Positions 2,799-22,791 of a DNA stretch of 64,000 bases are shown piece after piece. The DNA is from Verrucomicrobiota bacterium (GTDB lineage: Bacteria > Verrucomicrobiota > Verrucomicrobiia > Limisphaerales > CANJXF01). The position numbers and the translations under genes were made by a program. The DNA is taken from positions 73,398-137,397 of the forward strand of contig JBBQRQ010000002.1 of assembly GCA_038214755.1 (NCBI GenBank), read 5' to 3'. Position 1 is the first letter of the stretch; every line of letters begins with the position of its first letter. The notes beneath the pieces are model-generated. The model searched no databases, was not told the DNA's origin, and saw nothing but the letters and a program-made list of their open reading frames with translations.

Positions 2799-5027
2799 GT
2801 GATGCGCTCGATCATTTTTGATTTTCCCTTGGCGCTGCCGATTGGTTTGGCTTTGACGCTCGGCTTGCTGGGATGGTCGATTCGGAGTTTTCGGAAACAC
2901 GGGTTGTCGAAATCACGCATCGCATTGTTAACGACGTTGCGTGGCGCGACTTTGCTTCTCCTGGTTTTTCTCGGGGCGCGTCCGGTGTGGGTCGAGAAAC
3001 AGCGCGAGCAAAAGGAGAGAAGAAATATTCTGTTGCTCATGGACAAAAGCGAAAGCATGTCGCTTCAGGAAAATGAGCAAACGCGTTACGCACGCGCCAT
3101 CGCCTTTACTCGCGAACATCTTTTGCCGGGCTTCGAAGAAGCAAAATTGAAAGTGCAGCCGTTTCTTTTTGCTGAAGATGCCGAGCCGGTCGATGGGCCG
3201 AAACTGGTCGCGGCAAAAGCTGACGGCAAACGATCCAATCTCGGACGTGCCATCGCTCGCGCGTTGGAAAGTTCGCCCAACGCGCTGGCGGTGATCGCGT
3301 TGACCGATGGCGCGGCGAACGAAAAATCCGACAACATGCGCGCGCTTTCCGCCTTGCTCGATTCCCATGTGCCGTTCATCGGCATTGGCTTCGGCAGTGA
3401 CACAGGAGTAAAAATGTTGTCGTTGCAACAAGTTGAAGCGCCGCCGATTGCCGCGCCGAACACGCGCTTTGAAATAACCGCGCACCTGGAAACAATGAAC
3501 GTGAATGATCTGCCCGCGTTCGATCTGGTTTTGTTGCGCGACGGACATTTTCTGCAAAAGAAAACGGTGGTGGCCAGCAGCGGTTCGCGATTCTGGCTGG
3601 AAAGTTTTCGGGTCGAAGAAAAATCTGAAGGCGCGCACAACTACGAAATTCAACTTGCGCCGCCCAATCTTCCGGGACTCGCCAGAGCAGGGACGACGGG
3701 CAGCGTGGCGGTGCGCATCGCGTCCGAGCGCGAGTTGCGGGTGTTGTATGTGCAAGGCGCGTTGACGTGGGATTACAAGTTTATCGCCATGGCGTTGCAC
3801 GGTGACCCGACGATCAAACTCACTGGCCTGACGCGCACTTCGAGCAAATCAGTTTTTCGCCAGAACGTGGAGAACGCAGGCGAATTGCTGGAGGGTTTTC
3901 CAAAAACGATTGAAGGCATCGCGCCTTTTCGCGTGATTGTGCTTTCCAATTTGCGGCCAGTGGATCTTTCGACTGAGCAACAGGAGTTGCTGGCAAAATT
4001 TTCCGGCGAACTGGGCGGTGGCGTGCTGATGATCGGCGGCCCGGAAACTTTTGATTCATCGTGGCGCGACAGCCGGTTGGAAAAATTGTTGCCGGTTATT
4101 TTTTCTGAAAACGGCGGCGTGCAAGGTCTGGATCGCCCTTTTCAACTCGAACTGACAGACGAAGCTTTGCAACATCCGGTTTTTCAAATCAGCGACGGCG
4201 GCGCGTTGCGGCGCACGTGGAACGCTTTGCCGAAATTCCACCAATACGGCCGCGTTGATTCTGCGAAGCCGGGCGCGCAAGTCTGGGCGTTGCATCAAAC
4301 GGATGAAGGCCCGAAAGGCCGGCGCATTTTGATGGCGTCGCAACATTATGGTTCTGGATTGAGCGCGATTTTGACGGTGCAAAATTTTTGGTTGTGGCGT
4401 CTGGCGAAGGATTCCGAGCCGCAGGAGTTCGACCGTTTTTGGCGGCAACTGTTTCGTTTTCTCGCGGAATCGAGCCGGCAGGATGTCGCGATTCATATCG
4501 CCGATCAGGAACTTCGGCCTGATGTGGATATTCGATTGGTTCTAGAAAAAGAGCCGAGTCCAAAAGATGTCACCACTTCGAAGGCAAAATTTACGGCGCG
4601 GGTGGAAGATGCGCAGAAAAAAATTCTCGCTGAACAAACTTTGGAATTGCCCACGGGGCGTCCGGTTGATTTTTCATTTCATCCAAAGAACGCAGGACTT
4701 TACACCGTCTCGATTTTGAATGAGTTGAAACAGCCGGTTGCGACGCGTTCGATTGAAATTCGCGAGTTGAATGTGGAGTTGCAAAATTCGGCGCGGAACA
4801 TGGAGAACCTGCAACAATGGGCTTCACTCAGCGATGGACTGGCTTTGCGCGCGGAAGATTGTCGCGACGGCGCAGAACTTCTGGCGCAATTGAAACCGAA
4901 GCTGGAACAGGCACGGCAGTCGCCCAAAGTGCGCGCGCCGATTGGCGTCAACGGCTGGACGTTTGCCTTTTTGCTGGGCTGCTTGAGTTTGGAATGGGGT
5001 TTGCGCAAACGATTTGGCATGGCCTGA
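2799..5027 (+). CDS. Membrane protein with VWA-like and glutamine amidotransferase-like domains
   Basis: MIDAS-like DKSESM and LTDG; GGGVLMIGG; terminal TMs ending EWGLRKRFGMA. Confidence 0.7.
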   Translation: MMRSIIFDFPLALPIGLALTLGLLGWSIRSFRKHGLSKSRIALLTTLRGATLLLLVFLGARPVWVEKQREQKERRNILLLMDKSESMSLQENEQTRYARAIAFTREHLLPGFEEAKLKVQPFLFAEDAEPVDGPKLVAAKADGKRSNLGRAIARALESSPNALAVIALTDGAANEKSDNMRALSALLDSHVPFIGIGFGSDTGVKMLSLQQVEAPPIAAPNTRFEITAHLETMNVNDLPAFDLVLLRDGHFLQKKTVVASSGSRFWLESFRVEEKSEGAHNYEIQLAPPNLPGLARAGTTGSVAVRIASERELRVLYVQGALTWDYKFIAMALHGDPTIKLTGLTRTSSKSVFRQNVENAGELLEGFPKTIEGIAPFRVIVLSNLRPVDLSTEQQELLAKFSGELGGGVLMIGGPETFDSSWRDSRLEKLLPVIFSENGGVQGLDRPFQLELTDEALQHPVFQISDGGALRRTWNALPKFHQYGRVDSAKPGAQVWALHQTDEGPKGRRILMASQHYGSGLSAILTVQNFWLWRLAKDSEPQEFDRFWRQLFRFLAESSRQDVAIHIADQELRPDVDIRLVLEKEPSPKDVTTSKAKFTARVEDAQKKILAEQTLELPTGRPVDFSFHPKNAGLYTVSILNELKQPVATRSIEIRELNVELQNSARNMENLQQWASLSDGLALRAEDCRDGAELLAQLKPKLEQARQSPKVRAPIGVNGWTFAFLLGCLSLEWGLRKRFGMA

Positions 5028-5051
5028 AAATTTTTAATGAAGAATTCGCTT

Positions 5052-5726
5052 ATGAAAAAATTAAAAATCCTGCTCGCGATTATGTGCTGCGGCTTCCTGG
5101 CGCGCGCGGAAAATCCGCCCAAGCGTGAGGACAGGCTCGCCACATTTTTTATGGGCCGCGTCAAATATGCGAGCAACGACGGGCGCGATTGTGGCGGGGT
5201 GGGAGAAGATTTAATGAAGCTCGTTTCACGCGCCTCGACGATTAAGATTCAGGAAGAACGGCAGGTAAAATTGGCCGAGGCGCTTCTTTTTGAAACGCCG
5301 TTTGTGTTTATGAATGGCCACGACGATTTCGTTTTGACTGAAGCCGAGTTGCAAAATCTGCGTAAATATTTGAGCCACGGCGGATTTATTTTTGGCTCCG
5401 GTTGTTGCACGAATCCTAATTTCCCAAAAGCGTGGCGGCGCGAATTCAGTCGTGTTTTTGCAGGGGAGTCGGTCAAAGCGTTGAGCTATGACCATTTGAT
5501 TTACCGTTCGTTCTACAAAGTTGATCGCGTGAAATGCCTCGATAAACCGCGCAACATCCAGCTTGAAGGTTTATTTTACCAGGGAAATCTCGTCGCGGTG
5601 ATGTGCGAAGATGGCCTCTGCTGTTCCTTCAGCGCGAACAACACTTGCAACGACGGTAAAGGAATAAGCCCGAACGATGGACAGAAACTCGCGTTGAACA
5701 TCGCGGTGTTCGCGCTGACGCATTAA
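5052..5726 (+). CDS. DUF4159 domain protein
   Basis: Signal peptide; PFVFMNGH, LRKYLSHGGFIF, HLIYRSFY, LALNIAVFALTH; alternative start 5037. Confidence 0.75.
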   Translation: MKKLKILLAIMCCGFLARAENPPKREDRLATFFMGRVKYASNDGRDCGGVGEDLMKLVSRASTIKIQEERQVKLAEALLFETPFVFMNGHDDFVLTEAELQNLRKYLSHGGFIFGSGCCTNPNFPKAWRREFSRVFAGESVKALSYDHLIYRSFYKVDRVKCLDKPRNIQLEGLFYQGNLVAVMCEDGLCCSFSANNTCNDGKGISPNDGQKLALNIAVFALTH

Positions 5727-5749
5727 TCAGGTTGGCGAATGGTTCAAAT

Positions 5750-7144
5750 TCAGTCTTCAGCGCGCTCGCCATGCGGCGCCATCTTCACGAGCTTCGGATC
5801 GAATTGGCCGATCGTTTCCACCAAGTCGGATTGCGCAGCCATGACCGTATGAATGTCTTTGTAAACCATCGGCGCTTCGTCAAGGCCAGCGGAAATGAGC
5901 GTCACTCCGCGTTCGCGCAGAAATTGATTCACTGCTTTCCAATTGAAAGTTTGCGACGCGCGAGTGCGGCTCATGACACGTCCCGCTCCATGCGAAGCAG
6001 AATGCAAAGATTCAGCATTCCCTTTTCCACGAACAACAAATCCGGGGGTCGCCATTGAGCCAGGGATTATTCCCAACACACCCGTGCCCGCTGGCGTGGC
6101 ACCTTTGCGATGCACCACGACCTCACGCTCTACGCCCTCGATAACGTGCTTTTCTTTCCAGGCAAAGTTGTGGTGGTTTTCCAGATCGAGCAAGACCTGC
6201 GCGCCGAGATTTTCCGCGATGTGTTTATGAATGCAGGCGTGATTCGCGGCGGCGTATTGTCCCATCAATTCCATCGCGTTCCAATACTCCTGCCCTTCCT
6301 GCGAATCGAGCGACAACCACGCGAGCCGCTTCAATTCGCTCGGCAAATCGGGAAACTGGCTGAACGCGATCTTGCTGTAGTAATCGCAGACCGACGCGCC
6401 TGTGCCGCGACTCCCGCTGTGTGACAGCAACGCCACATAAGTGCCCGGTTCCAATTCGTTGATTTTCGAGTGCGCCGTGAATAGACCAAACTCGACAAAA
6501 TGATTGCCGCTGCCGCTCGTGCCGAGTTGCGACCACGCGCGGTCTTTGTTTTGTTTCGTAATTGGACTGACCGACCAGTCCGCGTCGAGCACGCCGTGGT
6601 GGCGACGCTCCTTGAAATTCGCGCCGATGCCGAAGCGCGTCTCCGCTTCGATGGCGCGCGTGAGCCGGTCCTGCTTGCGTTCCAGATCGCGCAACGGCAG
6701 ATCGAGCACCGTCATCTTCATGCGGCACGCGATGTCCACACCAACGGCGTAAGGAATCACCGCGTTCTCGGTGGCCAGCACGCCGCCGATGGGCAGGCCG
6801 TAGCCCACATGCGCGTCCGGCATGAGCGCGCCCGCCACCGAGATCGGCAACAGACACGCCTTTTCCATCTGCATCACCGCCTCATGTTCCAAACCTTCGC
6901 CCCATTGCCGATACTTCACCGGCTCGGCGCGCGGCGGCGGTGGCGCATGGAGCAACGCCTTCGCAAGCTCGCCGCGCAATGCGTCATCCACGAACGCCGC
7001 CGGATTGGCGACAATGGCCGCGACATCTTCGTGCAACCGCGACTTGTCGCCGCCGCCGAGGATAAACTTGCAAACAAAATCCGTCGCGCGCCGGGTGGCC
7101 TCGCCGAGCGGAACTCCCGTTCGTAAAAAATCTTTCGCATTCAT
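5750..7144 (-). CDS. rtcB: RtcB RNA 2',3'-cyclic phosphate/5'-OH ligase with N-terminal extension
   Basis: Intact motifs MPDAHVGYGLPIG, VGVDIAC, GSGNHF, HSGSRG, HHN, HRKGAT, SHGAGR. Confidence 0.95.
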   Translation of the reverse strand: MNAKDFLRTGVPLGEATRRATDFVCKFILGGGDKSRLHEDVAAIVANPAAFVDDALRGELAKALLHAPPPPRAEPVKYRQWGEGLEHEAVMQMEKACLLPISVAGALMPDAHVGYGLPIGGVLATENAVIPYAVGVDIACRMKMTVLDLPLRDLERKQDRLTRAIEAETRFGIGANFKERRHHGVLDADWSVSPITKQNKDRAWSQLGTSGSGNHFVEFGLFTAHSKINELEPGTYVALLSHSGSRGTGASVCDYYSKIAFSQFPDLPSELKRLAWLSLDSQEGQEYWNAMELMGQYAAANHACIHKHIAENLGAQVLLDLENHHNFAWKEKHVIEGVEREVVVHRKGATPAGTGVLGIIPGSMATPGFVVRGKGNAESLHSASHGAGRVMSRTRASQTFNWKAVNQFLRERGVTLISAGLDEAPMVYKDIHTVMAAQSDLVETIGQFDPKLVKMAPHGERAED

Positions 7145-7178
7145 AACAAAATTGCTTCTCCCGGTTTGAGGCGGAAAC

Positions 7179-8471
7179 TCACTTTTGCGCCTTGCTCAAC
7201 TCCGATTCGATCTCCTCGACCGTCGGCAGGCTGCCCTTCAGATTCTTCGGCAGGGATTCGACGAGCTTGGTCTGCCATTGCGCGACGCCGATGGGCTTCT
7301 TCAAATCGCGCAACGCATATTCCACCGTCAAGTTGTCGCGCTCCTTGCACAGCAACAGTCCGATAGACGGCTTGTCATCTGCGTGACGCAACTGATCGTC
7401 CACGGCGGAGAGATAGAAATTCATTTTACCGGCGAACTCCGGCTCAAAGGCTTTCATCTTCAAATCGATCACCACGTAGCTGCGCAACCGCAGATGATAG
7501 AACAACAGGTCGAGATAATAATCCTGCCCGCCAATTTCCAGGTGAAACTGCCGTCCCACGAACGCAAACCCGACGCCGAGCTGAAGCAGGAACTTCTGGA
7601 TGTGATCCAGCAAACCCAATTCAAGGTCGCGCTCATGCGCGTCGGCGCGGAGCGTGAGGAAATCGAAGGTGTAAGGGTCTTTGAGCGTCTGCTCGGCCAG
7701 ATCGGATTGCACCGGCGGCAACGTGCGCTGGAAGTTCGTAACCGCCTTGCCTTCGCGTTTGTGCAATTGCGCTTCGATGTGGTGCGTCAGCACCGCGCGT
7801 GACCAGCCATGCTCGACGGCTTTGCGCGCATACCAAAGGCGGTCAGCGGCGGATTCGAGTTTTTGCAGCAACACAATGTTGTGACCCCACGGCAGCGAAG
7901 CCATTGGTTCGGGCGGAGCGGCAAATTCTGTTGCAGGCTGTGACAGTTTTTGCGCCGGGAATTCTCTTACAGCTTGTGAGAGAATCTGCGGTTCGGATTC
8001 TCCAAGTCGCTGAGGAAGAATCGCCTCCTCCGGCAATTGTCGCACAAGCTGTGCGACAATTGCCGAACCCGACTGAGCAGCCGCCTTTTTCCCGCCGCCC
8101 GGTAATTGTCGCACAGGTTGTGCGACAATTGCGTTCGCCGGTGCATAACCCAGGAAGAACGCCCTCATGCGATAAAGATTCTTGCGAGAAAATCCTGCCA
8201 TCTCGGGGAACTCCTCGGTCAAGTCATGCGAGAGGCGATCAAGCACGCGGTCGCCCCATTTGTGCGTTTTCTGTTGTTCAACGATGGCTCTGCCAATGTC
8301 CCAATACAACGCGATCAGCTCGCGATTGACGGAAACCGCCGCGCGAAGTTGCGACGCGCGGACGCGCATCTTGAGGTCGGCGAGAATGGTGGCGTAATCG
8401 GCAGGCAATGCGCTGGACGCTTTGCCGCCGATGGCTTTTGCCAAGCTGATGGTTGATTTCTTTTTCGCCAT
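7179..8471 (-). CDS. YhcG/DUF1016 PD-(D/E)xK nuclease-like protein with expanded repetitive linker
   Basis: VNRELIALYWDIG, GFSRKNLYRMRAF, LPWGHN, KDPYTFDFL, DLLFYHLRLRSYVVIDLK. Confidence 0.9.
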   Translation of the reverse strand: MAKKKSTISLAKAIGGKASSALPADYATILADLKMRVRASQLRAAVSVNRELIALYWDIGRAIVEQQKTHKWGDRVLDRLSHDLTEEFPEMAGFSRKNLYRMRAFFLGYAPANAIVAQPVRQLPGGGKKAAAQSGSAIVAQLVRQLPEEAILPQRLGESEPQILSQAVREFPAQKLSQPATEFAAPPEPMASLPWGHNIVLLQKLESAADRLWYARKAVEHGWSRAVLTHHIEAQLHKREGKAVTNFQRTLPPVQSDLAEQTLKDPYTFDFLTLRADAHERDLELGLLDHIQKFLLQLGVGFAFVGRQFHLEIGGQDYYLDLLFYHLRLRSYVVIDLKMKAFEPEFAGKMNFYLSAVDDQLRHADDKPSIGLLLCKERDNLTVEYALRDLKKPIGVAQWQTKLVESLPKNLKGSLPTVEEIESELSKAQK

Positions 8472-8506
8472 ACCCAGAGTTAGCCGGTGATTCCTGGTTG
8501 ATGATG

Positions 8507-8593
8507 TTAAAGGTGGATTGGGTTGAAAAGCCTTTCCAAACGGGCAGCTTCACCCAGCGGCACACCGAGAGGAATAAAATCTTTAGTGTTCAT
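8507..8593 (-). pseudogene. Diverged copy of the rtcB 5' end
   Basis: Reads MNTKDFIPLGVPLGEAAR... versus RtcB MNAKDFLRTGVPLGEATR; 28 codons then stop. Confidence 0.85.
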
Positions 8594-8635
8594 GAAAAAT
8601 GCGTTTCAACAGGAACAGTGCCACCACCACCAAGC

Positions 8636-9769
8636 TCACGCTATCGCTTGGCGCAATTCGCCCGGCGAAACAATTGAAAGTTTCAGCCTATCCTGAACCC
8701 GCTCATACGCCGGGCCGTTCAATGGGCTGACCACATAGTTTTTCCCTTTTGGATACTGTTCGCGAAACGCCGCCAGCCCGCGCGTTTCAAACGCATCCGC
8801 TTTCCATTTGCATTCGATGGCGTCAACGGCATCGCGGCCGCGCGGCACGACGAAGTCCACTTCGCGCTGCTGTTTGTCGCGCCAGAAATGAATCTTCGGC
8901 AGATTGGCGGCGATAAGGGTGTCCAGCACGAGATGCTCCCACAACACGCCGCAATCCTCCGTTCGCAAATGATCCCAGCCGCGCGCGTGGCAGACCAACC
9001 CCGTGTCAAAACCGAACACCTTCGGCTGCGCCACGATCTCCCGCCGCCCGCCTGCTGAAAACGGACGCACCAAATGCGCCACATGCGTGATCTGATAAAC
9101 CTCCAGCCAGTTCGTGACGGCAGGCCGGCTGATCTGGCTTTCGGCGGCCAGCTTCGTCACGTCCAGCATCCCGCCGCTTTGGCGCATCAACAATTCCAGC
9201 ACGCGCAGAAAACCGGCGCGTTTCTCCAGCCGGAAAAGCTCCTGGACGTCGCGCGCGAAATAGGAATCCTGCCACTCGGCGTAGAATTCTGGATTGTGTT
9301 TCTCCGCGAGCAGCGCGGGCGGCAATCCCCCGCGCAACAAACGTTCCCGCAAATCCGTCACGCCGAACGCCGCCAATTCCTCGTGCAACACCGGCACCAG
9401 CTGCACCACCCGCTTGCGCCCCGTCAGGCTGTCGCGGAACTTTTGCGTGGCCGCGAGCGTGGACGAACCCGTCGCCAGGATTTTCAATTTGGGAAAATCA
9501 TCCGCGCCAATCTTCAACAGCCGGCTTGGATCGGGAAGCTGATGCACCTCGTCGAACACCACCAGCCGCTTTTTCACGGAACGGAAAAAACTCTCCGGAT
9601 CGCGCAGCCGTTCCGCCACGCTGGGCAGGTCGCAGTTGAGAAACTCCGCGTCGGGAAAGCTCTGCGCCAGCACCGTCTTGCCCGCGCGCCGCGGCCCGCT
9701 CAGCCAGACAATGGACGCCTGTTTCCACGCGGCGACGAGCCGTTCAGTCCAAAAAGGTCGGTCAATCAT
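8636..9769 (-). CDS. AAA_14 + DUF4143 ATP-binding protein
   Basis: Walker A GPRRAGKT, Walker B VFDEVH, TGSS, C-terminal EVDFV...IECK. Confidence 0.9.
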   Translation of the reverse strand: MIDRPFWTERLVAAWKQASIVWLSGPRRAGKTVLAQSFPDAEFLNCDLPSVAERLRDPESFFRSVKKRLVVFDEVHQLPDPSRLLKIGADDFPKLKILATGSSTLAATQKFRDSLTGRKRVVQLVPVLHEELAAFGVTDLRERLLRGGLPPALLAEKHNPEFYAEWQDSYFARDVQELFRLEKRAGFLRVLELLMRQSGGMLDVTKLAAESQISRPAVTNWLEVYQITHVAHLVRPFSAGGRREIVAQPKVFGFDTGLVCHARGWDHLRTEDCGVLWEHLVLDTLIAANLPKIHFWRDKQQREVDFVVPRGRDAVDAIECKWKADAFETRGLAAFREQYPKGKNYVVSPLNGPAYERVQDRLKLSIVSPGELRQAIA

Positions 9770-9775
9770 GGCAGG

Positions 9776-9811
9776 CAGACTTTACGTTTAGACGGCTAAA
9801 AGTAAAGTCTG
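9776..9811. promoter_or_regulatory. 36-nt palindrome just upstream of AAA-DUF4143 gene (candidate operator)
   Basis: CAGACTTTAC-G-TTTAG acgg CTAAA-A-GTAAAGTCTG; 15 of 16 pairs. Confidence 0.5.
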
Positions 9812-9907
9812 GATTCGGCGCGCGGCGTTTACGCCGCTTCAACTCCCGGCTGTTGAGCGCCGCAGAGATGCCTCACGATGTCGTGCGGTGAAGCGGACTG
9901 AACTTTG

Positions 9908-10140
9908 AATCCCAACGGGATTCCAGCGTTCAGCCAAAGGTTGCGACGAAGGAGCTATCTTGGGTTCGCATCCCAAAATATCCACAACCCCAACGCGGGT
10001 TGCATCGTTTTCATTTATCCGTTTCTGATTCACGGGCGGACGCAACTCCTTCAGAGTTGAAATTCTTTTTTCACGTTTTCCCAGGGTAGCTCGTTCCTCG
10101 CAACCTTGGGCTGACTGACGAAATCCCGTTGGGATTTTCA
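9908..10140. repeat. REPIN/MITE-like palindromic element (AATCCCAACGGGATT family)
   Basis: Inverted ends AATCCCAACGGGATT...AATCCCGTTGGGATT; related copy at 18931-19198. Confidence 0.75.
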
Positions 10141-10150
10141 AAAGCATGAG

Positions 10151-10246
10151 CCGTCGCGCGCCGCGTGGCTTCACCCGGCGGCACGTCTTGGCGCGCCGAA
10201 GTTGGACGCAAGGGGGGACGAGACGGAGAAAATCTTTGGCGTTCAT
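10151..10246 (-). pseudogene. Second diverged copy of the rtcB 5' end, interrupted by a short insert
   Basis: MNAKDFLRL, about 30-nt insert, then VPPGEATRRAT; DNA resembles 7081-7144. Confidence 0.85.
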
Positions 10247-10316
10247 GTCAAACAAGGGTCGTCCTCCCATTCGAGAACTTGCGCGTTCGTCGCCCCCGTC
10301 ATGTCAGCCCACGTTT

Positions 10317-11057
10317 TCACAACCAAATGTCCGTTCCTGCGGCGAGCCAGTTCGGAACCATCTTCTGATGCTGCCAGTGTTCGCTTTGCTGCACCTTCTC
10401 CACAAACTCCGGACGGACCAGTTTGGCGCGGCCTGTCACATAGCCGTCGGCCTCACTGCGAACGTAAAGTCCTTCCATCAAATTGTCGGTCTTGCCCGTG
10501 ATTGGATTTTCAAAAGCGCTGTCAAACGCCGATGGCACGATGAGCGATTCCAGTTCGTCTGCCTTGGCGCGACCGCGATGAACGATAGGCACAGTATGAA
10601 GGCCGGTTCCGTCCAACATTCGCTGACGAGCGGCGAGGTCGAGAAACTGCCCGGCGTCCTTGTCGTAAATGTCGAACTCGAAAAAGTAATGCGGTAGCTT
10701 GCAATAGTGGACGGAGTGCTTCGCGTAGAGCCATTCGCCGTAGAGGATAAACTGATTACCGAGCATTCCTTCGAGGACTGGGCGCTTCACCGAAGTCCAC
10801 TGCTTGAAGAGATCATATTGCGGATGCATGCCCTCGGTAATTTCGTGACCACGGCATTGCAGCACCATGCGTCCACGGGACGTGAAATGAATTCCAACGT
10901 TCGTGCCATCAATCTTCTCCGCCACAATCAACGAAGGGTCCGCGATCAACCTCTCAGATTCTTTTTGGCCAAGATGTTTGTCGCCAGCAGTTCCCTTCGA
11001 CCCGAACAGATGCGGTGTGCGTGGGTATTTGATAAAATCATCGCGGGTCGCTCCCAT
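10317..11057 (-). CDS. ATP-dependent RNA ligase family protein
   Basis: KYPRTPHL, motif I EKIDG, YGEW, EFDIYD, MEGLY, RAKLV. Confidence 0.85.
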
Positions 11058-11123
11058 AGCAGTAATCGAGTTTGGTTGAATTAAGTTGGGAGAGCGAGCT
11101 TTGACGCCCGCTCTCCCGTTGTT

Positions 11124-11195
11124 TCATTCGTTCAAGAACAGTTTCCACTCCGTGATGCCGTGGGCGTTGCGGAGGAGCGCCGTGACCGGCAGTTT
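11124..11195 (-). pseudogene. Duplicated 3' end of the HNH gene
   Basis: LPVTALLRNAHGITEWKLFLNE* versus LPVTALIRNAHGIAEWKLFLNA* ending at 12549. Confidence 0.85.
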
Positions 11196-11222
11196 CCCGC
11201 CTTGCGCGACCGTGGTACGTTT

Positions 11223-12470
11223 TCACAGACAAGACCACGGGAGCGCCGTCACCTTGTCGTGTATTTGCAGCGGCTGACGGCAGCGGCAAATGATGTAGGC
11301 GTGCTTCGCGTGTTTCGGATGTTCACCCAAGAACGTCAGGAGATGACGCGCGTCGGAGAGCGTCGGGTTCTCCGTCCATTTCACTTCAATCGGCGTCAGG
11401 CCGCCTTCGCGCTGGATGATGAAGTCCACTTCCGCGCCGTCATGGGTGCGGAGGTAATGCAACGTGCCCGTGCCAAGGTATTGCAGGCGTTTCCAAAGTT
11501 CGACTCCCACCCATTGCTCGAAGAGCGGGCCGGGATTCGCCAGCACCACATCGGTGTTGGGCCGCAACCCGGCGGCGGCGTGGCGGATGCCGAGGTCGAA
11601 GAACAGGAAGCGGTCGGTGGAGAGCAGATTTTTTCGCGGGCTGCCGGAATATGCTGGCAGACGGAAGCCGAGAAACATGTCTTCCAAAAGCTGGTAGTGG
11701 CTCTTGATGGTCGGCACGGACAGGCCTACGTCCTTGGAAATTTTGTGGTAGTTCACCATCTGCCCGGACTCGACGGCGGCGAAGCGCAGGAAGCGCACGA
11801 ACGCGGGCCAGTCCTTCACCATCGCTTCGCGCCGCATTTCCTCCTCCAGATGAAGTTGCGTGTAGGCGTGCAACATCTCGGCGCGATGCGCTTCGTCAGC
11901 GGTGACGACGCCCGGGAGTTCGCCGAAGGCGAGTCGTGTGAGCAGGTCGGCGCGCGGAAATGGTTTCGTCGGGCGCTTCCCGTCCGGCCAGTCGAGCGGC
12001 AACGGCGGCGGGGCGTCAAACTCAGCGGGCGATTCGGCAGGCGGGCGTTCAGTCAGCGTGAGCGGAAAAAGGCGGTGCAAAAAGCTGCGGCCCGGCAGAA
12101 GGTTCGCGCCGGTCTGCCGCAACTTGCGCGCGGAACTGCCGCAGAGGATGAACCGCCAGCGTTTCTTGTCTCCGTCGTAAAGATGCTGCACGGCGTCGAA
12201 CAGCGCGGGCACGTTTTGCGCCTCGTCCACGAACACCCACGCGCCGCCTTCGCGCTGTCGCAGGCCACGGCAAAGTGCGATGAGGTCGTCCGGGTGGTTG
12301 AGATATTGCGCCCGCACCTTCGGAATGGAGAGGTCAATGCGCGCGGCGTGCGGCGGCAGGAGATTCTGAATGAGGGTGGATTTGCCCGTCTGCCGCGCGC
12401 CGAACACGATATGCACATACGGGGCGGCGAACTTCTTTCGCCAAAGGGATTCGGGCCAGCGGGTGAACAC
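11223..12470 (-). CDS. AAA_14 + DUF4143 ATP-binding protein
   Basis: GARQTGKS, FVDEAQ, CGSSARKL, EVDFII...IEVK. Confidence 0.9.
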   Translation of the reverse strand: MFTRWPESLWRKKFAAPYVHIVFGARQTGKSTLIQNLLPPHAARIDLSIPKVRAQYLNHPDDLIALCRGLRQREGGAWVFVDEAQNVPALFDAVQHLYDGDKKRWRFILCGSSARKLRQTGANLLPGRSFLHRLFPLTLTERPPAESPAEFDAPPPLPLDWPDGKRPTKPFPRADLLTRLAFGELPGVVTADEAHRAEMLHAYTQLHLEEEMRREAMVKDWPAFVRFLRFAAVESGQMVNYHKISKDVGLSVPTIKSHYQLLEDMFLGFRLPAYSGSPRKNLLSTDRFLFFDLGIRHAAAGLRPNTDVVLANPGPLFEQWVGVELWKRLQYLGTGTLHYLRTHDGAEVDFIIQREGGLTPIEVKWTENPTLSDARHLLTFLGEHPKHAKHAYIICRCRQPLQIHDKVTALPWSCL

Positions 12471-12484
12471 GGCTTGGTTTTAAT

Positions 12485-12520
12485 CGCCTGTTATTGAAAG
12501 TCAACTTTCAATAACAGGCG
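12485..12520. promoter_or_regulatory. Perfect 36-nt palindrome upstream of AAA-DUF4143 gene (candidate operator)
   Basis: CGCCTGTTATTGAAAG tcaa CTTTCAATAACAGGCG. Confidence 0.5.
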
Positions 12521-12548
12521 TTTAATGAAAACGCGATTCGCGCGCACC

Positions 12549-12806
12549 TCAGGCATTGAGGAACAGTTTCCACTCCGCGATGCCGTGCGCGTTTCGGATG
12601 AGCGCCGTCACCGGCAGTTCCTTCGGCGCGCGCGGAACGTTGAGCAATTTCAATACGGCTTCGTGCGGCAGGCGGTTGCCCTTTTTCGAGTTCACCGCTT
12701 TGTTCGCCCAGACGCAATTCTCCCACGCATCTTTTCCGCCGCGCGAACGTGGCAGGATATGATCGATACTGCCTTCCTCCGGCTTCAGAATTTTGCCGGT
12801 GTATTG
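12549..12806 (-). pseudogene. HNH endonuclease, 5'-truncated
   Basis: QYTGK...SIDHILPRSRGGKDAWENCVWANKAVNSKKGN; upstream sequence is tRNA-like and gives no credible start. Confidence 0.75.
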
Positions 12807-12827
12807 GACCAGCCTCCCGGAATTGAA

Positions 12828-12905
12828 TGGTGCGGCAACCGGGAGTTGCACCCGGACGAACGGAAGACTTGCAGGTCGCCGCCTGGGCTACTCGGCTAAT
12901 AGGAC
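12828..12905 (-). tRNA. Chimeric tRNA-like pseudogene (Cys-GCA-like 5' half fused to an unrelated 3' half)
   Basis: GTCCTAT-TA-GCCG-AGTAGCCCA-GGC-G-GCGAC-CTGCAA-GTC ... CCGGG-TGCAACT-CCCGG-TTGCCGC-A-CCA; acceptor halves do not pair. Confidence 0.6.
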
Positions 12906-12913
12906 ATCAATCG

Positions 12914-13160
12914 TTACTCTCGGAAGTAATGATCGCGCCGACTTCCGTCATAGCAGCCAGACTGCAATCAACAATTTTTGAAAGCTGCGTCCTGAGCCGC
13001 ACGAACAAAGATCGTTGCGTCCGAGCTTTTCATGAAGCTCCTTAGTTCCATAAACGATGCGGGAACCTTTTTTCAAGCGAGTTTCCGATGGATACCCTTT
13101 GCGACGTTTGCTGGTGATCTCGAAAAAACGGGCTGTCTTGATGAACCGATTGATTTCCCT
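12914..13160 (-). pseudogene. SEC-C (GRNDxCxCGSG) small protein split by +1 frameshift, degenerate
   Basis: Frame 0 ...[17 protein letters not shown]; +1 frame [25 protein letters not shown] followed by AGG where ATG is expected. Confidence 0.7.
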
Positions 13161-13280
13161 TACGGCCTCCGGCTTAGGGGTTGTGGTTGTGAATAACTAA
13201 TGCTTGAAATTTTTTCCTTCTAACGCGACAACAGAACTGCGCGACGAACAGCTTTGATCCAAATACCGGCTTTGAGATCT

Positions 13281-13360
13281 TTGTGCCGGGGCGTGGATTG
13301 CTCCTCGGAGCAGTATTCCGCTTGCGGAAGCGCCTATCTCCTTTGAGCGTTCGCCGCGCA
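13281..13360 (-). ncRNA. Candidate structured RNA downstream of the His-like tRNA
   Basis: GGCG...CGCC closing two hairpins (TTCCGC-AA-GCGGAA and TGCTCC-GA-GGAGCA); T-arm-like GGAGCAATCC. Confidence 0.35.
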
Positions 13361-13374
13361 TTTACTTTTTGAAT

Positions 13375-13451
13375 TGGTCAGGAAGCCGGCATTTGCACGC
13401 GGACCGTCTCCTTCACAGGGAGAGATGCTGCTAATTACACCACGATCCTGA
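13375..13451 (-). tRNA. Non-canonical tRNA-like gene, anticodon GTG (His)
   Basis: Anticodon arm TCTCC-CTGTGAA-GGAGA, D-arm GTGT-AATTAGCA-GCAT, T-loop TGCAAAT, encoded CCA; T and acceptor stems imperfect. Confidence 0.7.
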
Positions 13452-13456
13452 TTTGA

Positions 13457-13542
13457 GCGCGGAACGCAGAACGCGGAACGCGGAAAGAAAAACTCGCGCG
13501 CGATTGATCTGATTTCCACGTTCCGCATTCCGAGTTCCGCGT
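13457..13542. repeat. Heptamer-repeat hairpin spacer (GCGGAAC)n...(GTTCCGC)n
   Basis: Tandem degenerate 7-mers in inverted orientation between two tRNA-like genes. Confidence 0.7.
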
Positions 13543-13548
13543 TTGAAA

Positions 13549-13622
13549 TGCTCCCACGTGGACTTGCACCACGAACCTTCTCCTTCGCAGGGAGACATGC
13601 AGTTCTATTACACCTTGAGAGC
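13549..13622 (-). tRNA. Non-canonical tRNA-like gene, anticodon GCG (Arg)
   Basis: Acceptor GCTCTCA/TGGGAGC, anticodon arm TCTCC-CTGCGAA-GGAGA, T-arm CGTGG-TGCAAGT-CCACG. Confidence 0.75.
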
Positions 13623-13630
13623 GGAAAGAA

Positions 13631-13715
13631 ATTTACGATTTACGAATGACGATTTACGCGGGCAAATCCAAATCGTCAGCCGACTCGTAAATCGTAAATC
13701 CAAAATCGTAAATCG
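13631..13715. repeat. Heptamer-repeat hairpin spacer (ATTTACG)n...(CGTAAAT)n
   Basis: Tandem 7-mers in inverted orientation. Confidence 0.7.
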
Positions 13716-13718
13716 AAA

Positions 13719-13746
13719 TGGTATCCGTGGCCGGACTTGCACCGGC
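13719..13746 (-). tRNA. 3' fragment of a tRNA-like gene
   Basis: GCCGG-TGCAAGT-CCGGC-CACGGAT-A-CCA; 5' part missing. Confidence 0.6.
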
Positions 13747-13863
13747 TAGGTGGTGGAGATGAAGCGGTCGCGGAAACGTTTTAAAACGTCGCAAATAAAA
13801 GGAGCGGCATGACGGTGAATGAGTTGTTGATATTTTTCATAGCGGGAAAGTGGCCGGAACCCT

Positions 13864-13982
13864 CCACCGTTTCGAGTCTTTTCGTCGGCCTGCGCTACGC
13901 TCCGGCCTCCTCCAAGACTCGAAACGGTGGGAAGAATAAATCACTGAAGGTTTGATCGCACACACTGAAGGTTTGATCGCAC
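13864..13982. mobile_element. Probable IS-end relic: 17-bp hairpin plus tandem 20-nt duplication
   Basis: CCACCGTTTCGAGTCTT...AAGACTCGAAACGGTGG; CACTGAAGGTTTGATCGCAC twice. Confidence 0.35.
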
Positions 13983-14025
13983 CGCGACAGCTACAAATCT
14001 GAGTCGTGGCGACGGCGCGCTGCTC

Positions 14026-14096
14026 GTAGCCGCCGACGTGAGGAGGCGGATTCCGATCGGAAAACCACGAAACCGCCTCCTCACGTCAGCGGCTAC
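14026..14096. repeat. GTAG-type REP doublet
   Basis: GTAGCCGCCGACGTGAGGAGGCGG...CCGCCTCCTCACGTCAGCGGCTAC. Confidence 0.8.
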
Positions 14097-14143
14097 AACT
14101 TATGAAATTTTGATGGAGCGCGAACCAGATTTTTCCCGGAGAT

Positions 14144-14542
14144 TTATTCCTTTTTCTTTTTGAAAAATCTTGGGCCAGCCTCGCCTTGTCGTTGTTGAAC
14201 TTTGAGTTGGCCAAGAATGGAGACCCAACCGATAAAAATTTTATGCCATTGATTTTCCATGCTGCGGATGACGCCATCGGCCATTTCGCTGAGGTAGCGA
14301 ATGGAGGGCGCGCTCGAGATCAGGGCGAGGACGTCTTCCTTGGTCGGGGAGGGGCATTCCACGGAAGCGAGGATCAACTCCATTTCCTGAACGATGACGC
14401 TTTTGACTTCGAGGAATTGGATCTCGTCTTCGCTGCTGAATTTTTTTGAGCGGGCGAGGTTGACGAAATAATTAAATTGCTTGAGGCATTCCAAATAATT
14501 TTCCAACTGCAGGATGAGTTGTTCGTGGTCTTGGTGGCGCAT
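14144..14542 (-). CDS. Hypothetical helical protein
   Basis: 132 aa ORF tightly linked to upstream operon. Confidence 0.7.
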   Translation of the reverse strand: MRHQDHEQLILQLENYLECLKQFNYFVNLARSKKFSSEDEIQFLEVKSVIVQEMELILASVECPSPTKEDVLALISSAPSIRYLSEMADGVIRSMENQWHKIFIGWVSILGQLKVQQRQGEAGPRFFKKKKE

Positions 14543-14547
14543 AAAAT

Positions 14548-14850
14548 TTAATCGTTGTAGGGCTGAAGTCCTTTTGGTTTGAGAAAAATAATGGCTCCGC
14601 CGCGAAGCTCGCGCGCGGTGATTTTAAAGCCGCCATAACGCACGATAATTTCGGACAGAGGCAAAGCGGCCTTGCGCGCATCCTGGAATACGCCCAAAAC
14701 GGTGCCGCTGATCTCGCCCATGTATTTTTGGGAGAAGGAATGCGGCAAGGTCGAGGCGAGCAAACGGCCCAGCGCATCGACGGTGAAACTGCCCGAAGGC
14801 AACCGCGCCAGTTTCGGAATCGGTTTGGAAAAAATATTTAAGAAGCCCAT
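14548..14850 (-). CDS. Small hypothetical protein, possibly roadblock/profilin-like fold
   Basis: MGFLNIFSKP...SGSFTVDALGRLLASTLP...ITARELRGGAIIFL; ATG at 14850. Confidence 0.6.
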   Translation of the reverse strand: MGFLNIFSKPIPKLARLPSGSFTVDALGRLLASTLPHSFSQKYMGEISGTVLGVFQDARKAALPLSEIIVRYGGFKITARELRGGAIIFLKPKGLQPYND

Positions 14851-18733: not shown

Positions 18734-18826
18734 GCCGTCCGTTTCGTCAGCCTTCAGAAATTGATTTCCACCTGCTTTGTTGGGAGGTCTTGACGCAGCC
18801 CAATTTACACTTCTCAGGAGCGATGC

Positions 18827-19275
18827 GGGGTGTGATTTAAACTGGCGGTCACTTGTAGCGCAGGATTGCATTCTGCCGTAGCGCAGGTTTTCAACCCTTG
18901 TCATTACCCACAATTCCTCGGCGCCTTTTCAATCCCAACGGGATTGAAATCAATCAGCCCCGCGTTGCGAGGAACGAGCTACGCTGAGTCATCGTGCAAA
19001 CAAATCCTCAACCCGGAACGGGTTGCATAAAATCCCCTCTTACATCGCTACGAAATCGAATTTGATGAACGGAAGATTGGGATTAATTTCGCGATTTGAT
19101 TCAACTCTTTCAGAGTTGATGCACTTTTATTGACATCCCCCAGCGTAGCTCGTTCCTCGCAACGCTGGGCTAAGTGATCCCAATCCTTTCAGGATTGAAG
19201 AAACACGGGCTGCGATGTGGGTAATGACAAGGATGCAATCCTGCGCTACGTGACCGCCACTTGAACTCACACCCC
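18827..19275. mobile_element. Four-layer nested MITE/REP element with a Y1 transposase C-terminal remnant
   Basis: Nested inverted ends GGGGTGTGA..TGGCGGTCAC, GTAGCGCAGGATTGCAT, CCTTGTCATTACCCACA, AATCCCAACGGGATT; core reads LLHRYEIEFDER. Confidence 0.7.
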
Positions 19276-19319
19276 GGCGATGCGTCGGGGGGCCTTATTT
19301 TTTCAACGGCTCACTCAAA

Positions 19320-21088: not shown

Positions 21089-21578
21089 AATTTTCCTTTG
21101 GTTAGAGACTCGGGAATTTTTCCCAAGCCATCCCGCGGAAGACGGGATTATTTTTGATGTTGTTGTGGCCGCCCGACTTCACACGAAGACAGATTTGAAG
21201 GCCGTTTTCCTTTCCTCAACGTGGCAAACCGCGCTCTGAAAAGGGTGTGAAACTTACCAAGAAAAGAGACCGTAGCAACTTCTATTTTCGACCGGTCGCA
21301 CGCCATTTATATATCAGGCAAAAAAAATCAGGATGACCCTGAAAATTTCGGCTCAAGAGCGGCTGGACTTTCTTTTGGGGGGCAATTTGGTCACGCAAAA
21401 AATCGCGAATGTCATTCCCGTTTTGGCGTAGCATTCACCCCATCCGGAAAATCTGAAACCGGTGCTGCTTGGTTCCAAAATCCGGCAAATCTTTTTTCGT
21501 ATAGATTGAATCTTTGGGAATAAGCCATCCGGAAATGACAATTTGCTATTTAGGGAATGCGGGTGTCATGTAAGTCTT

Positions 21579-21953
21579 ATGTCAGAAAAAAACAAAAAAC
21601 GGTTCGGAGTTTGGATGGATACGCACCACGCGACCATCGTAGGCTGCAACCCCACCGCCACTGAGTTCAACGTCCTCGGTCATGCCAAGAATCCAGGTGC
21701 CGGAGCCAATTCGAACGAGAATGCCTCGAACAATCTCGAAATAACTTTGGTTCGAAAGTATTTCAAAGAGATCGGCCGCCATCTGGTGAACGCGGAGGAG
21801 GTTCACCTCACCGGCACTGGCACAATCCAAGAGCAATTCAAGCACTACCTTGCGGAAACCCCCCAGTTCAAAAGGACGGTCGTTTCCGAAAGCACCTCCA
21901 ACCAAATGAGCGATGAAAAGCTGGTTGAGTTCGTAAATAGCCATTTCAACTAG
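21579..21953 (+). CDS. Small protein, possibly eRF1/host-attachment-like RNase H-fold
   Basis: FGVWMDTHHATIV...KYFKEIGRHL...VHLTGTG; family assignment from recall only. Confidence 0.55.
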   Translation: MSEKNKKRFGVWMDTHHATIVGCNPTATEFNVLGHAKNPGAGANSNENASNNLEITLVRKYFKEIGRHLVNAEEVHLTGTGTIQEQFKHYLAETPQFKRTVVSESTSNQMSDEKLVEFVNSHFN

Positions 21954-22252
21954 GAAGACGTCATCCAGTTTATGGCCTCAAAACACACCGCGCGACTCGC
22001 GTCATCGCGGTAAAATACGAGGCAGTTGCGAAATCCGTTCACGGGCAACATTCTCAGCTTTGGCAATGCCGAGTTGCGCGTGCGAAAAATCATTCCGCAT
22101 TCGGGATACCGGGAAATCTGGTGAAAGGTTTCATCAATTGCGCCAAGAACCTGTTCGGCAGCGGCGGGATCATCTTTTGCAATAAAAACGTAAATTTCCG
22201 GAAGATCATCCTCGATGACGGAGGCATGCCGTTCGATTCGTTTGTCAGCCAC
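21950..22252 (-). CDS. RelE/ParE family toxin, C-terminus looks degenerate
   Basis: DDLPEIYVFIAKDDPAAAEQVL...YPECG...LRMLPVNGFRNCLVFYR; GTG start. Confidence 0.75.
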   Translation of the reverse strand: MADKRIERHASVIEDDLPEIYVFIAKDDPAAAEQVLGAIDETFHQISRYPECGMIFRTRNSALPKLRMLPVNGFRNCLVFYRDDASRAVCFEAINWMTSS

Positions 22253-22475
22253 GTTCTTGAGAGGCCTTCCGGACGCGCTCTTTCCAATCGGGCTCGAGCG
22301 GGGAAAAGGGGCCTTTGCAACGTTCTTCCAAAACCATTTCGAGTTCGGTTTGTTCGCAATCCGCGCGCGCCAACGCGAGCAAGTATTCTTCTTTCGAGCG
22401 AAAACCGCCCGCTTTGAAGCGGTTCTCGATTTGCGCATCCAGAGTGTCTGGCAATGAAACGGTGACGTTGCTCAT
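22245..22475 (-). CDS. ParD-like RHH antitoxin
   Basis: VTVSLPDTLDAQIE...GGFRSKEEYLLALAR; overlaps toxin start. Confidence 0.75.
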   Translation of the reverse strand: MSNVTVSLPDTLDAQIENRFKAGGFRSKEEYLLALARADCEQTELEMVLEERCKGPFSPLEPDWKERVRKASQERG

Positions 22476-22791
22476 ATTGAAAAAGTCTGTTTGAATTCTT
22501 CGATGACGTGCAGTGCGCTCACGGATTTAATTATGCACAAAGAATTCTTTCGGGCAAGCAACCGCATGGGGGTTGTAATTCAACAATTCTGACGTTTGCG
22601 CGAAATCGCGGAAGACCCGTAAAGGGTTTGGAACTTACCAAAGAAAAAGTCCAGGGCAACTTCTATTTTCGCCCAAACGCACGTCGCAATTCGTGGCAAA
22701 AAAGGTTCAGTCTTTGCCAATAGGGGTGTAGTTGCGTTTTTTCTTCAGGCCTAGATTTAGATCAGCAAAACAATCTAAAAATTGTAAAACC

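Follow-up and report, generated by a model that had tools for sequence, protein, structure and literature searches.

The window analysed here is a 64,000-nucleotide (nt) stretch of a Verrucomicrobiota bacterium (assembly GCA_038214755.1, contig JBBQRQ010000002.1, positions 73,398 to 137,397), and our subject is the stack of cargo genes that stands in front of its rtcB gene, interleaved with diverged copies of the first bases of rtcB, which we call remnants. The stack is real and serial, and most likely made by host recombination, a variant of known processes. We put the probability at about 0.65 that the process is homologous recombination by the host at the rtcB start, with the newest cargo proximal to rtcB.

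The genes of the stack all lie on the minus strand, positions are those of the window, and gene families were assigned by Pfam search of the products of open reading frames (ORFs). The features on which the argument depends are as follows.

5750..7144, minus strand: intact rtcB, 464 amino acids (aa), Pfam RtcB E 7e-87; a mosaic gene
7094..7144, minus strand: foreign-looking 5' tract of the intact rtcB, its first 51 nt, which presumably arrived together with YhcG
7179..8471, minus strand: YhcG / DUF1016 PD-(D/E)XK protein (DUF1016_N and YhcG_C), PDC-S02 candidate defence family; probably the newest cargo
8593 to about 8540-8545, minus strand: rtcB start remnant 2, 47-54 nt; earlier the working start behind AAA gene b
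8636..9769, minus strand: AAA_14-DUF4143 gene b, PDC-S01 candidate defence family
10246 to about 10148-10150, minus strand: rtcB start remnant 1, homologous over about 67 nt and interrupted by a 32-nt insertion at 10187-10218
10317..11057, minus strand: RNA ligase PF09414, 78% DNA identity over 800 nt to loci L127/L131; member of an older ligase and HD-AAA unit

The initial annotation had placed rtcB starts on the minus strand at 10246, 8593 and 7144, and all three are present there, the last being intact; its naming of the cargo as RNA ligase, AAA-DUF4143 and YhcG also holds (PF09414, AAA_14 with DUF4143, and DUF1016_N with YhcG_C). The extent it gave for remnant 2, 8593-8507, is right at the start and too long at the end, where homology covers only about 47-54 nt and 8507 is the stop of a short ORF. 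The remnants are directly observed: a DNA profile built from 30 intact starts scores remnant 1 at 40.9 bits and remnant 2 at 38.7 bits, and the top score of the same profile on 2.39 Mb of reversed control sequence is 12.7 bits. As had been noted, they are not a fresh target-site duplication, their identity to the intact start being 49/67 and 32/47, respectively, with many synonymous differences (8 synonymous and 4 non-synonymous codon differences for remnant 1, 6 and 4 for remnant 2). Remnant 1 is readable in two frames because of the insertion at 10218-10187, whose sequence has no match in the genome or in the collected loci.

The source genome is a 5.1-Mb, 175-contig metagenome bin from sediment, whose nearest named rtcB matches come mostly from Verrucomicrobiota, and such a bin could in principle hold a chimeric assembly of related strains. 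We consider this scarcely credible. Logan contigs of the one run containing this DNA tile 5000-13894 with zero differing letters at a depth of 22-27; one, over 6771-8729, bridges the intact start, YhcG and remnant 2, another, over 8700-11535, bridges AAA gene b to AAA gene a, and the same architecture is found in other genomes. The run may be the source sample, and the comparison is thus a check of the assembly and not an independent occurrence; as a separate assembly of the run, these contigs give the identical sequence, which largely removes the chimera that the initial annotation had named as a refutation. Excision joints between the repeats were not found in the Logan contigs, which drop rare variants.

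The order of events was reconstructed from related genomes, in which we observe a chain of starts that are intact in one genome and displaced in the next. The stretch from AAA gene b through its spacer to nt 47 of remnant 2 aligns to genome G004 of the same genus at 89.7% over 1274 nt, and in G004 that start opens the intact rtcB. The Fic gene of G004, with its spacer and a 94-nt remnant, aligns to G001 at 92% over 1417 nt, and that start is intact in G001. A further, decayed relic in G004, whose score was equalled by 1 of 2000 shuffles, stands behind a gene, Y, that sits before an intact start in L128, and YhcG, rtcB-proximal in the window, precedes a remnant in L217. For 10 of the 18 distinct remnants, the 200 nt upstream of the remnant were found before an intact rtcB elsewhere. 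Because these pairs of upstream DNA and start are intact in other genomes, we regard a remnant as a former working start still attached to its preceding gene. G004 also supplies the empty site, without YhcG and with the AAA-linked start intact, at the level of the genus and not of the same species. The chain across G004 and G001, together with the foreign intact start described below, supports the earlier proposal of serial capture at a conserved gene terminus, in which each unit brings its own rtcB start and no integrase acts in cis. It is likely that new cargo enters adjacent to rtcB with its own start and displaces older cargo outward, and the reconstructed insertion order is a new element relative to known processes. 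The RNA ligase keeps its identity but not the role of single cargo gene that it had been given, since it belongs to an older unit of ligase and HD-AAA that was cut by deletion.

The affinities of the remnants were assessed by nearest-neighbour and informative-site tests, 50-100 nt holding too few sites for a tree. The mosaic start of the window is plain to see. Over nt 1-54, the intact start shares 72% identity with genus relatives and 85-87% with L129/L167; it differs from G003 at 15 of 54 positions against 63 of 756 in the body of the gene (p=6e-5), and each 54-nt block of codons 37-270 shows 87-96% identity to G003. Informative sites are of the L129 type up to nt 45 and of the genus type from there on, with a single exception at nt 78, and the differences of the window start from the genus are concentrated in nt 6-51, to be compared with a remnant length of 47-54 nt. 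The remnants are genus-like: remnant 1 matches G003 at 60/63 positions vs 47/63 for its own intact start, and remnant 2 at 42/47 vs 32/47. The same pattern is seen in L261, where the 96-nt remnant stands at 95/96 to L145 and its own start at 80/96, and where L261 and L145 differ at 16 sites in nt 21-80 and at 5 in nt 81-160.

We suggest the following mechanism. A unit consisting of a cargo gene and the first 50-100 bases of a donor rtcB would recombine into the resident rtcB start; the donor start would then head the working gene and the resident start would stay upstream as the remnant. On repetition, each new cargo would adjoin rtcB and older cargo would be moved outward, and a mirror-image event at the 3' end of the HNH gene upstream would yield an HNH remnant. 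A cassette probably acquires its first junction a single time, in an illegitimate join of the microhomology type, and afterwards the remnant likely acts as a second homology arm, by way of a circle released between repeats or of a double crossover. Such a second arm would allow a cassette to be added without deletion of the upstream neighbour. We infer that the polarity is a general rule and that the process depends on RecA. The genome has recA, comEC and two dprA genes (G000, this genome, C5:82580 and C8:21292), which is weak evidence, as most control genomes have them too.

A number of observations weigh against host recombination with the newest cargo proximal. In a polarity test of 11 remnants, the nearest relative of the rtcB body was more similar to the remnant than to the intact start in four (remnants 1 and 2 of the window, L261, and L088 against G003 only), equally similar to both in two (L089 and L127) and more similar to the intact start in five (L143, L195, L164, L168 and L135). 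Remnant decay biases the test in this direction and can account for part of the five, and the opposite polarity is possible in these loci. The 3' part of rtcB (codons 325-450; window 5750-6170) reaches only 76-89% identity with the best-matching of 79 relatives, vs 83-96% between G003 and G004, and is a second foreign tract; rtcB is thus mosaic for other causes too. The short donor tract could also stem from later overwriting by conspecific alleles. The copies of the HNH end do not tell a resident from an incoming copy (62 and 64 vs 61 and 59 of 72), no donor of the intact start was found among the 79 other intact genes (best match 47/54), and neither an excised circle nor an intermediate of insertion was seen. 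For RecA, 50-100 nt at 70-90% identity makes a short homology arm.

The five opposite cases raise the alternative that, in many instances, DNA anchored upstream by long homology in the tRNA array or HNH was joined illegitimately, as cargo with a short rtcB-start tail, before the resident cargo. The remnant would then be the tail of the donor, and the cargo most distant from rtcB the newest. G001 and G004 share a remnant-Fic junction with a different upstream gene, the remnant being fresh in G001 and decayed in G004, which fits a swap anchored at HNH and the remnant. However, the remnants of the window and L261 are resident-like and their intact start foreign, and no HNH match was found in the fetched upstream DNA of L135, L143, L164 and L168. 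We therefore judge this route unlikely as the general account; it probably acts beside recombination at the rtcB start, not in its place.

Duplication of the whole gene (cargo plus a full second rtcB), followed by loss of most of the upstream copy, would draw on the deletions that the locus has undergone (HNH/tRNA array and HD-AAA) and on the duplicated ends of up to 690 nt at other genes, including a 183-aa C-terminus of ilvD. It predicts, however, a wholly donor-type intact gene, yet only the first 51 nt are foreign here, and a search of 267 loci gave no upstream rtcB piece in the same orientation beyond about 34 codons. We find it very doubtful.

The positions at which remnants end bear on whether an enzyme is involved. 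They are spread over nt 40-106 of rtcB, with 10 of 19 at nt 86-101, and this cluster falls on a GGC repeat at nt 88-97 that is a plausible microhomology hot spot. In homology-facilitated illegitimate recombination, joins prefer short GC-rich microhomology; rtcB would be a possible long anchor in that model, and the visible donor tract is just about 51 nt. The clustering, the stop of the donor tract near the remnant end, and the presence in the genome of five tyrosine recombinases (PF00589, none on this contig), one resolvase-domain protein and 17 Y1 transposase matches could be taken to mean that a site-specific recombinase, an HUH transposase or the HNH nuclease of the operon inserts the units in trans, in the manner of integrative elements that carry a replacement piece of their target. 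We think this improbable given the spread of the ends, the coincidence of the cluster with the GGC repeat, the truncation of HNH in the window, and the presence of such scars, 28-690 nt long, at about 73 gene ends that are unrelated to one another. No att-like conservation was found at the rtcB start in the 79 other intact genes, synonymous conservation in codons 1-18 being 55% vs 42-63% elsewhere, even though some loci in the test were selected on that very pattern, a bias that would favour finding it. Because the ends vary and synonymous conservation is not raised, a fixed att site is unlikely. No recombinase gene was found in or near the stack by Pfam on 9 + 21 ORFs of window 1-30000 and by family searches of the genome. 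The earlier remark that no integrase or transposase gene is nearby is correct: the contig is without tyrosine recombinase or resolvase, and its sole IS200-like transposase lies about 67 kb outside the window.

The behaviour of one cassette is informative for the second step of the proposed host recombination. In L195, L276, L277 and L135, a Phd-PIN pair has a remnant that ends at nt 94-101, at the same place before the cassette promoter, and L256 has a weak relic of the same junction; the DNA upstream is non-homologous among these loci and the cargo only 72-83% alike. In L276 and L277, third codon positions make up 6 of the 7 sites at which each remnant differs from the intact start, and since the differences are almost only at third positions, these remnants were coding until recently. 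The Phd-PIN junction thus appears to have formed once and to travel with the cassette, its remnant sequence apparently being renewed from each recipient. A renewed remnant is the outcome expected from recombination through it, either by re-entry of a circle or by a double crossover with rtcB as the second arm. That one toxin-antitoxin (TA) cassette holds the same junction in four unrelated contexts is a new observation. Short donor tracts slightly favour the circle over the double crossover; overwriting by conspecific alleles could mimic them. Tentatively, and as something we would not bet on, the cargo may amount to a self-propagating, enzyme-free cassette: it would lie between two termini of a host gene, keep and refresh the remnant as a recombination arm, leave as a circle and re-enter at the same gene end in another lineage, and so build ordered defence/TA arrays at dozens of housekeeping genes without any mobile-element protein.

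Across the order, the N-terminus of rtcB was found in 206 of 401 genomes, and where HNH sits upstream of rtcB, a tRNA array precedes HNH (about 9 co-oriented tRNA calls in G004 and 13 in G265, ARAGORN, relaxed). This placement behind the array is seen in window 12808-13622, where most of the array is deleted, in L088 1-910 and in L127. In Anabaena, one translation-stress repressor is common to rtcB, HNH genes and a tRNA operon (PMC10272220), which fits the host operon and has no bearing on the insertions. The interval between HNH and rtcB varies in content in most loci holding both (Fic, AlbA, DUF4238, HEAT, ligase with HD-AAA, and unknowns), so that the fixed neighbours which the initial annotation had offered as a refutation are not what relatives have; they show variable neighbours and additional remnants. 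Of 92 distinct loci with 1.5 kb or more of sequence before the intact start, window included, 10 have a remnant there that scores at least 20 bits, a proportion that is not free of selection bias, 20 regions having been picked for genomes with several matches; eight further loci have a remnant without a visible intact rtcB behind it. Within the genus, remnants occur in G000, G001 and G004, and none within 1.7 kb in G006; G003 ends at a contig edge. A protein profile detected no remnant in the 80 top-ranking GTDB rtcB loci (Verrucomicrobiota, Planctomycetota, Acidobacteriota and others), whose upstream DNA is often short. The repeats of 47-106 nt enclose 0.4-3 kb of cargo, with one pair 11.6 kb apart (L127). 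The cargo types at rtcB loci are YhcG, AAA-DUF4143, Fic, PIN pairs, MFS and pilin-like genes.

Three individual loci deserve mention. In L164 (7101; G318:C149), a diverged rtcB start is seemingly fused in frame ahead of an MFS transporter ORF and may provide the start codon of this cargo. In L261 (3632-3818), the MFS gene is preceded by the same palindromic leader as AAA-DUF4143 gene b, which suggests that an AAA gene was deleted there and its leader reused. L200 (367-3851) has two frameshifted rtcB copies, inverted and divergent, possibly an assembly artefact.

Similar scars are in observed excess throughout the genome. Probes made of the last 60 nt of 3382 ORFs have a non-ORF copy downstream in 49 cases, compared with 6 that have one upstream; the counts for internal probes are 5 and 13. 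The 5' probes, for which the gene ends are imprecise, have a copy upstream in 31 ORFs vs downstream in 14. With mirrored pairs removed, there are 73 candidate sites (47 at 3' and 26 at 5' ends) with 87 copies, 28-690 nt long (median 92 nt), at a median identity of 86%; 2 of the 87 copies are at least 99% identical. Twelve of the 73 sites are multi-copy, some of these being tandem paralogues rather than remnants. Two stacks stand out, one at the ilvD 3' end (G000 C26 15420-26175) with four copies, one encoding 183 aa, and one at the 5' end of a peptidase M3 gene (G000 C73 5662-12120) with up to four. At 14 of 20 sites picked by eye, the cargo encodes domains of the TA type or of comparable small modules (PIN, ParE, HEPN/NTase, DUF433/DUF5615, TumE and others). 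Among the 30 best matches per query, loci with cargo homologues in other genomes lie at an rtcB start in 0 of 29 cases for YhcG and 1 of 20 for AAA; YhcG stands at rtcB in L136 and L217, which were found by other routes. On these counts, with most homologues away from rtcB, we reject a cassette library specific to rtcB. The counts also speak, along with the scars at about 73 candidate gene ends, against the dedicated integron-like array envisaged in the initial annotation. Nor does the cargo seem to stand under the operon promoter as a rule, as had been supposed: the Fic gene in G001/G004 and the cargo of L199 are on the opposite strand, and several cargos have a palindromic or promoter-like leader of their own (palindromic for AAA a, AAA b and Phd-PIN). 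Cargo need not depend on the operon promoter.

In transcription order, the locus in the window reads tRNA-array remains, HNH 3' half, AAA-DUF4143 a, HNH 3'-end copy, RNA ligase, HD-AAA stump, remnant 1, an element of the repetitive extragenic palindromic (REP) or miniature inverted-repeat transposable element (MITE) type, AAA-DUF4143 b, remnant 2, YhcG and intact rtcB. The HNH 3'-end copy beside a second AAA-DUF4143 gene, the REP/MITE, the HD-AAA stump and the tRNA-array/HNH deletion go beyond what had been described before. The other features are listed below.

9776..9811, no strand: palindrome 5' of AAA gene b, a self inverted match; possible own operator/promoter
9905..10136, no strand: REP/MITE-type inverted-repeat element directly behind remnant 1, without genes
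10262..10320, minus strand: HD-AAA_33 gene stump of about 18 codons, aligning with the 5' end of the complete gene in L127 and L131, the rest deleted
11124..11194, minus strand: HNH 3'-end remnant copy, 71 nt at 86%, 24.9 bits on the HNH profile
11223..12470, minus strand: AAA_14-DUF4143 gene a, PDC-S01; cargo flanked by the two HNH ends, with a close copy on contig C107
12480..12525, no strand: palindrome 5' of AAA gene a, 22-bp arms; possible operator
12549..12807, minus strand: HNH endonuclease gene, 3' half, the 5' half deleted along with most of the tRNA array
13375..13622, minus strand: remaining tRNA genes of the array, His at 13375-13450 and Arg-like at 13549-13622

The palindrome of AAA gene b is also kept in G004 and ahead of the L261 MFS gene, the leader of AAA gene a recurs behind an rtcB remnant in L296, and the hairpin spacer behind the HNH 3'-end remnant is the spacer that stands behind the intact HNH in G004. 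The REP/MITE has arms of 57 nt, 82% complementary, and dozens of copies across the genome. G004 has about 1270 extra bases at the HNH/tRNA deletion point, with about eight tRNA calls within them; the host operon of the window is decaying, deletions having taken about 1270 nt from the tRNA array and HNH together with almost the whole of HD-AAA. The matches of the cargo to the PADLOC candidates PDC-S01 and PDC-S02 are at the level of annotation and denote predicted defence only. An Rfam scan of 5000-14600 gave one tRNA and chance microRNA matches, nothing further, and a scan for sigma-70 promoters and terminators gave no more sites than shuffled sequence. Three 34-nt palindromic repeats lie in frame between the two domains of the YhcG gene (window 7955-8132), and high-copy REP-like and heptamer repeat elements flank tRNA genes and tsf (window 13450-14110, 18826-19276). 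Upstream of rpsB, a non-coding segment of 63 nt occurs twice (21240-21302 and 22621-22683; 79%), around a ParE-type module at 21582-22438, possibly by the same process acting on a promoter region rather than a gene end.

The stack resembles several known systems. Integrons take in the newest gene at one fixed end of an array, have cargo rich in TA and defence genes, and rely on IntI, attI and attC, their promoterless cassettes being read from one upstream promoter. The rtcB stack probably has a fixed entry end, and it has TA/defence-candidate cargo as well. It has, however, no integron integrase (0 of 5 PF00589 matches on the contig) and no single array, its spacers are coding remnants of rtcB and HNH in which no attC was seen (no dedicated attC model was run), and its cargo often has its own leader or lies on the opposite strand; it is not an integron. 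Some integrative elements restore their target gene with a carried fragment and leave the displaced fragment behind. The units at rtcB would likewise supply a replacement terminus, but without an integrase or a fixed crossover point.

Long target duplication, as set out by Furuta et al. 2010, places foreign genes without mobile-element genes between variable direct repeats of more than 30 bp that often span a start or stop codon and leave the target gene intact, mostly in competent species; release through the repeats was proposed, and those authors state that there is no experimental evidence for release (PMC2853133). Our locus agrees in having direct repeats above 30 bp, an insert below 20 kb, no integrase or transposase in it (a gene-less REP/MITE is present) and a related genome, G004, with a single-copy empty site. 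It departs from that description in its cargo, which is TA/defence-candidate genes instead of restriction-modification, in its serial repetition at one gene start, and in the origin of the copies: both come from the target in long target duplication, whereas here the intact start is foreign and the remnants genus-like (in the window and L261; mixed elsewhere) (PMC2853133).

The type VI secretion system (T6SS) immunity arrays of V. cholerae, attributed to homology-facilitated illegitimate recombination by Kirchberger et al. 2017, share the one-sided anchor, successive insertions that push older genes back, an integron-like order without integrase, and remnants of displaced genes (PMC5361080). 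In those arrays, however, the effector that is displaced disappears and orphan immunity genes pile up, whereas at rtcB the anchor gene is fully restored with a leftover terminus of only 50-100 nt, and the process extends over the genome. A third parallel is offered by minimal mobile elements and integrase-free hotspots, in which cargo is swapped between conserved flanks; the likeness lies in the variable cargo between HNH and rtcB, the recombination in flanks and the mosaic flanking gene (PMC3787668; Oliveira et al. 2017, PMC5635113). As those sources describe it, the swap is a double crossover without a duplicated terminus; here the remnant arm would permit addition, not replacement. We found nothing in the open-access literature, supplements aside, on gene-start remnants formed in series together with starts derived from a donor.

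The route by which single toxin-antitoxin and defence genes come into chromosomes without a mobile element is described as poorly characterised (PMC13617665), and many gene-transfer hotspots have no integrases (PMC5635113). The scars described here preserve the succession of events and distinguish the donor copy from the resident one, and this record of donor and resident makes the proposed cycle of release and reinsertion testable. Duplicated gene ends are, moreover, a simple marker for candidate defence genes in an under-studied phylum.

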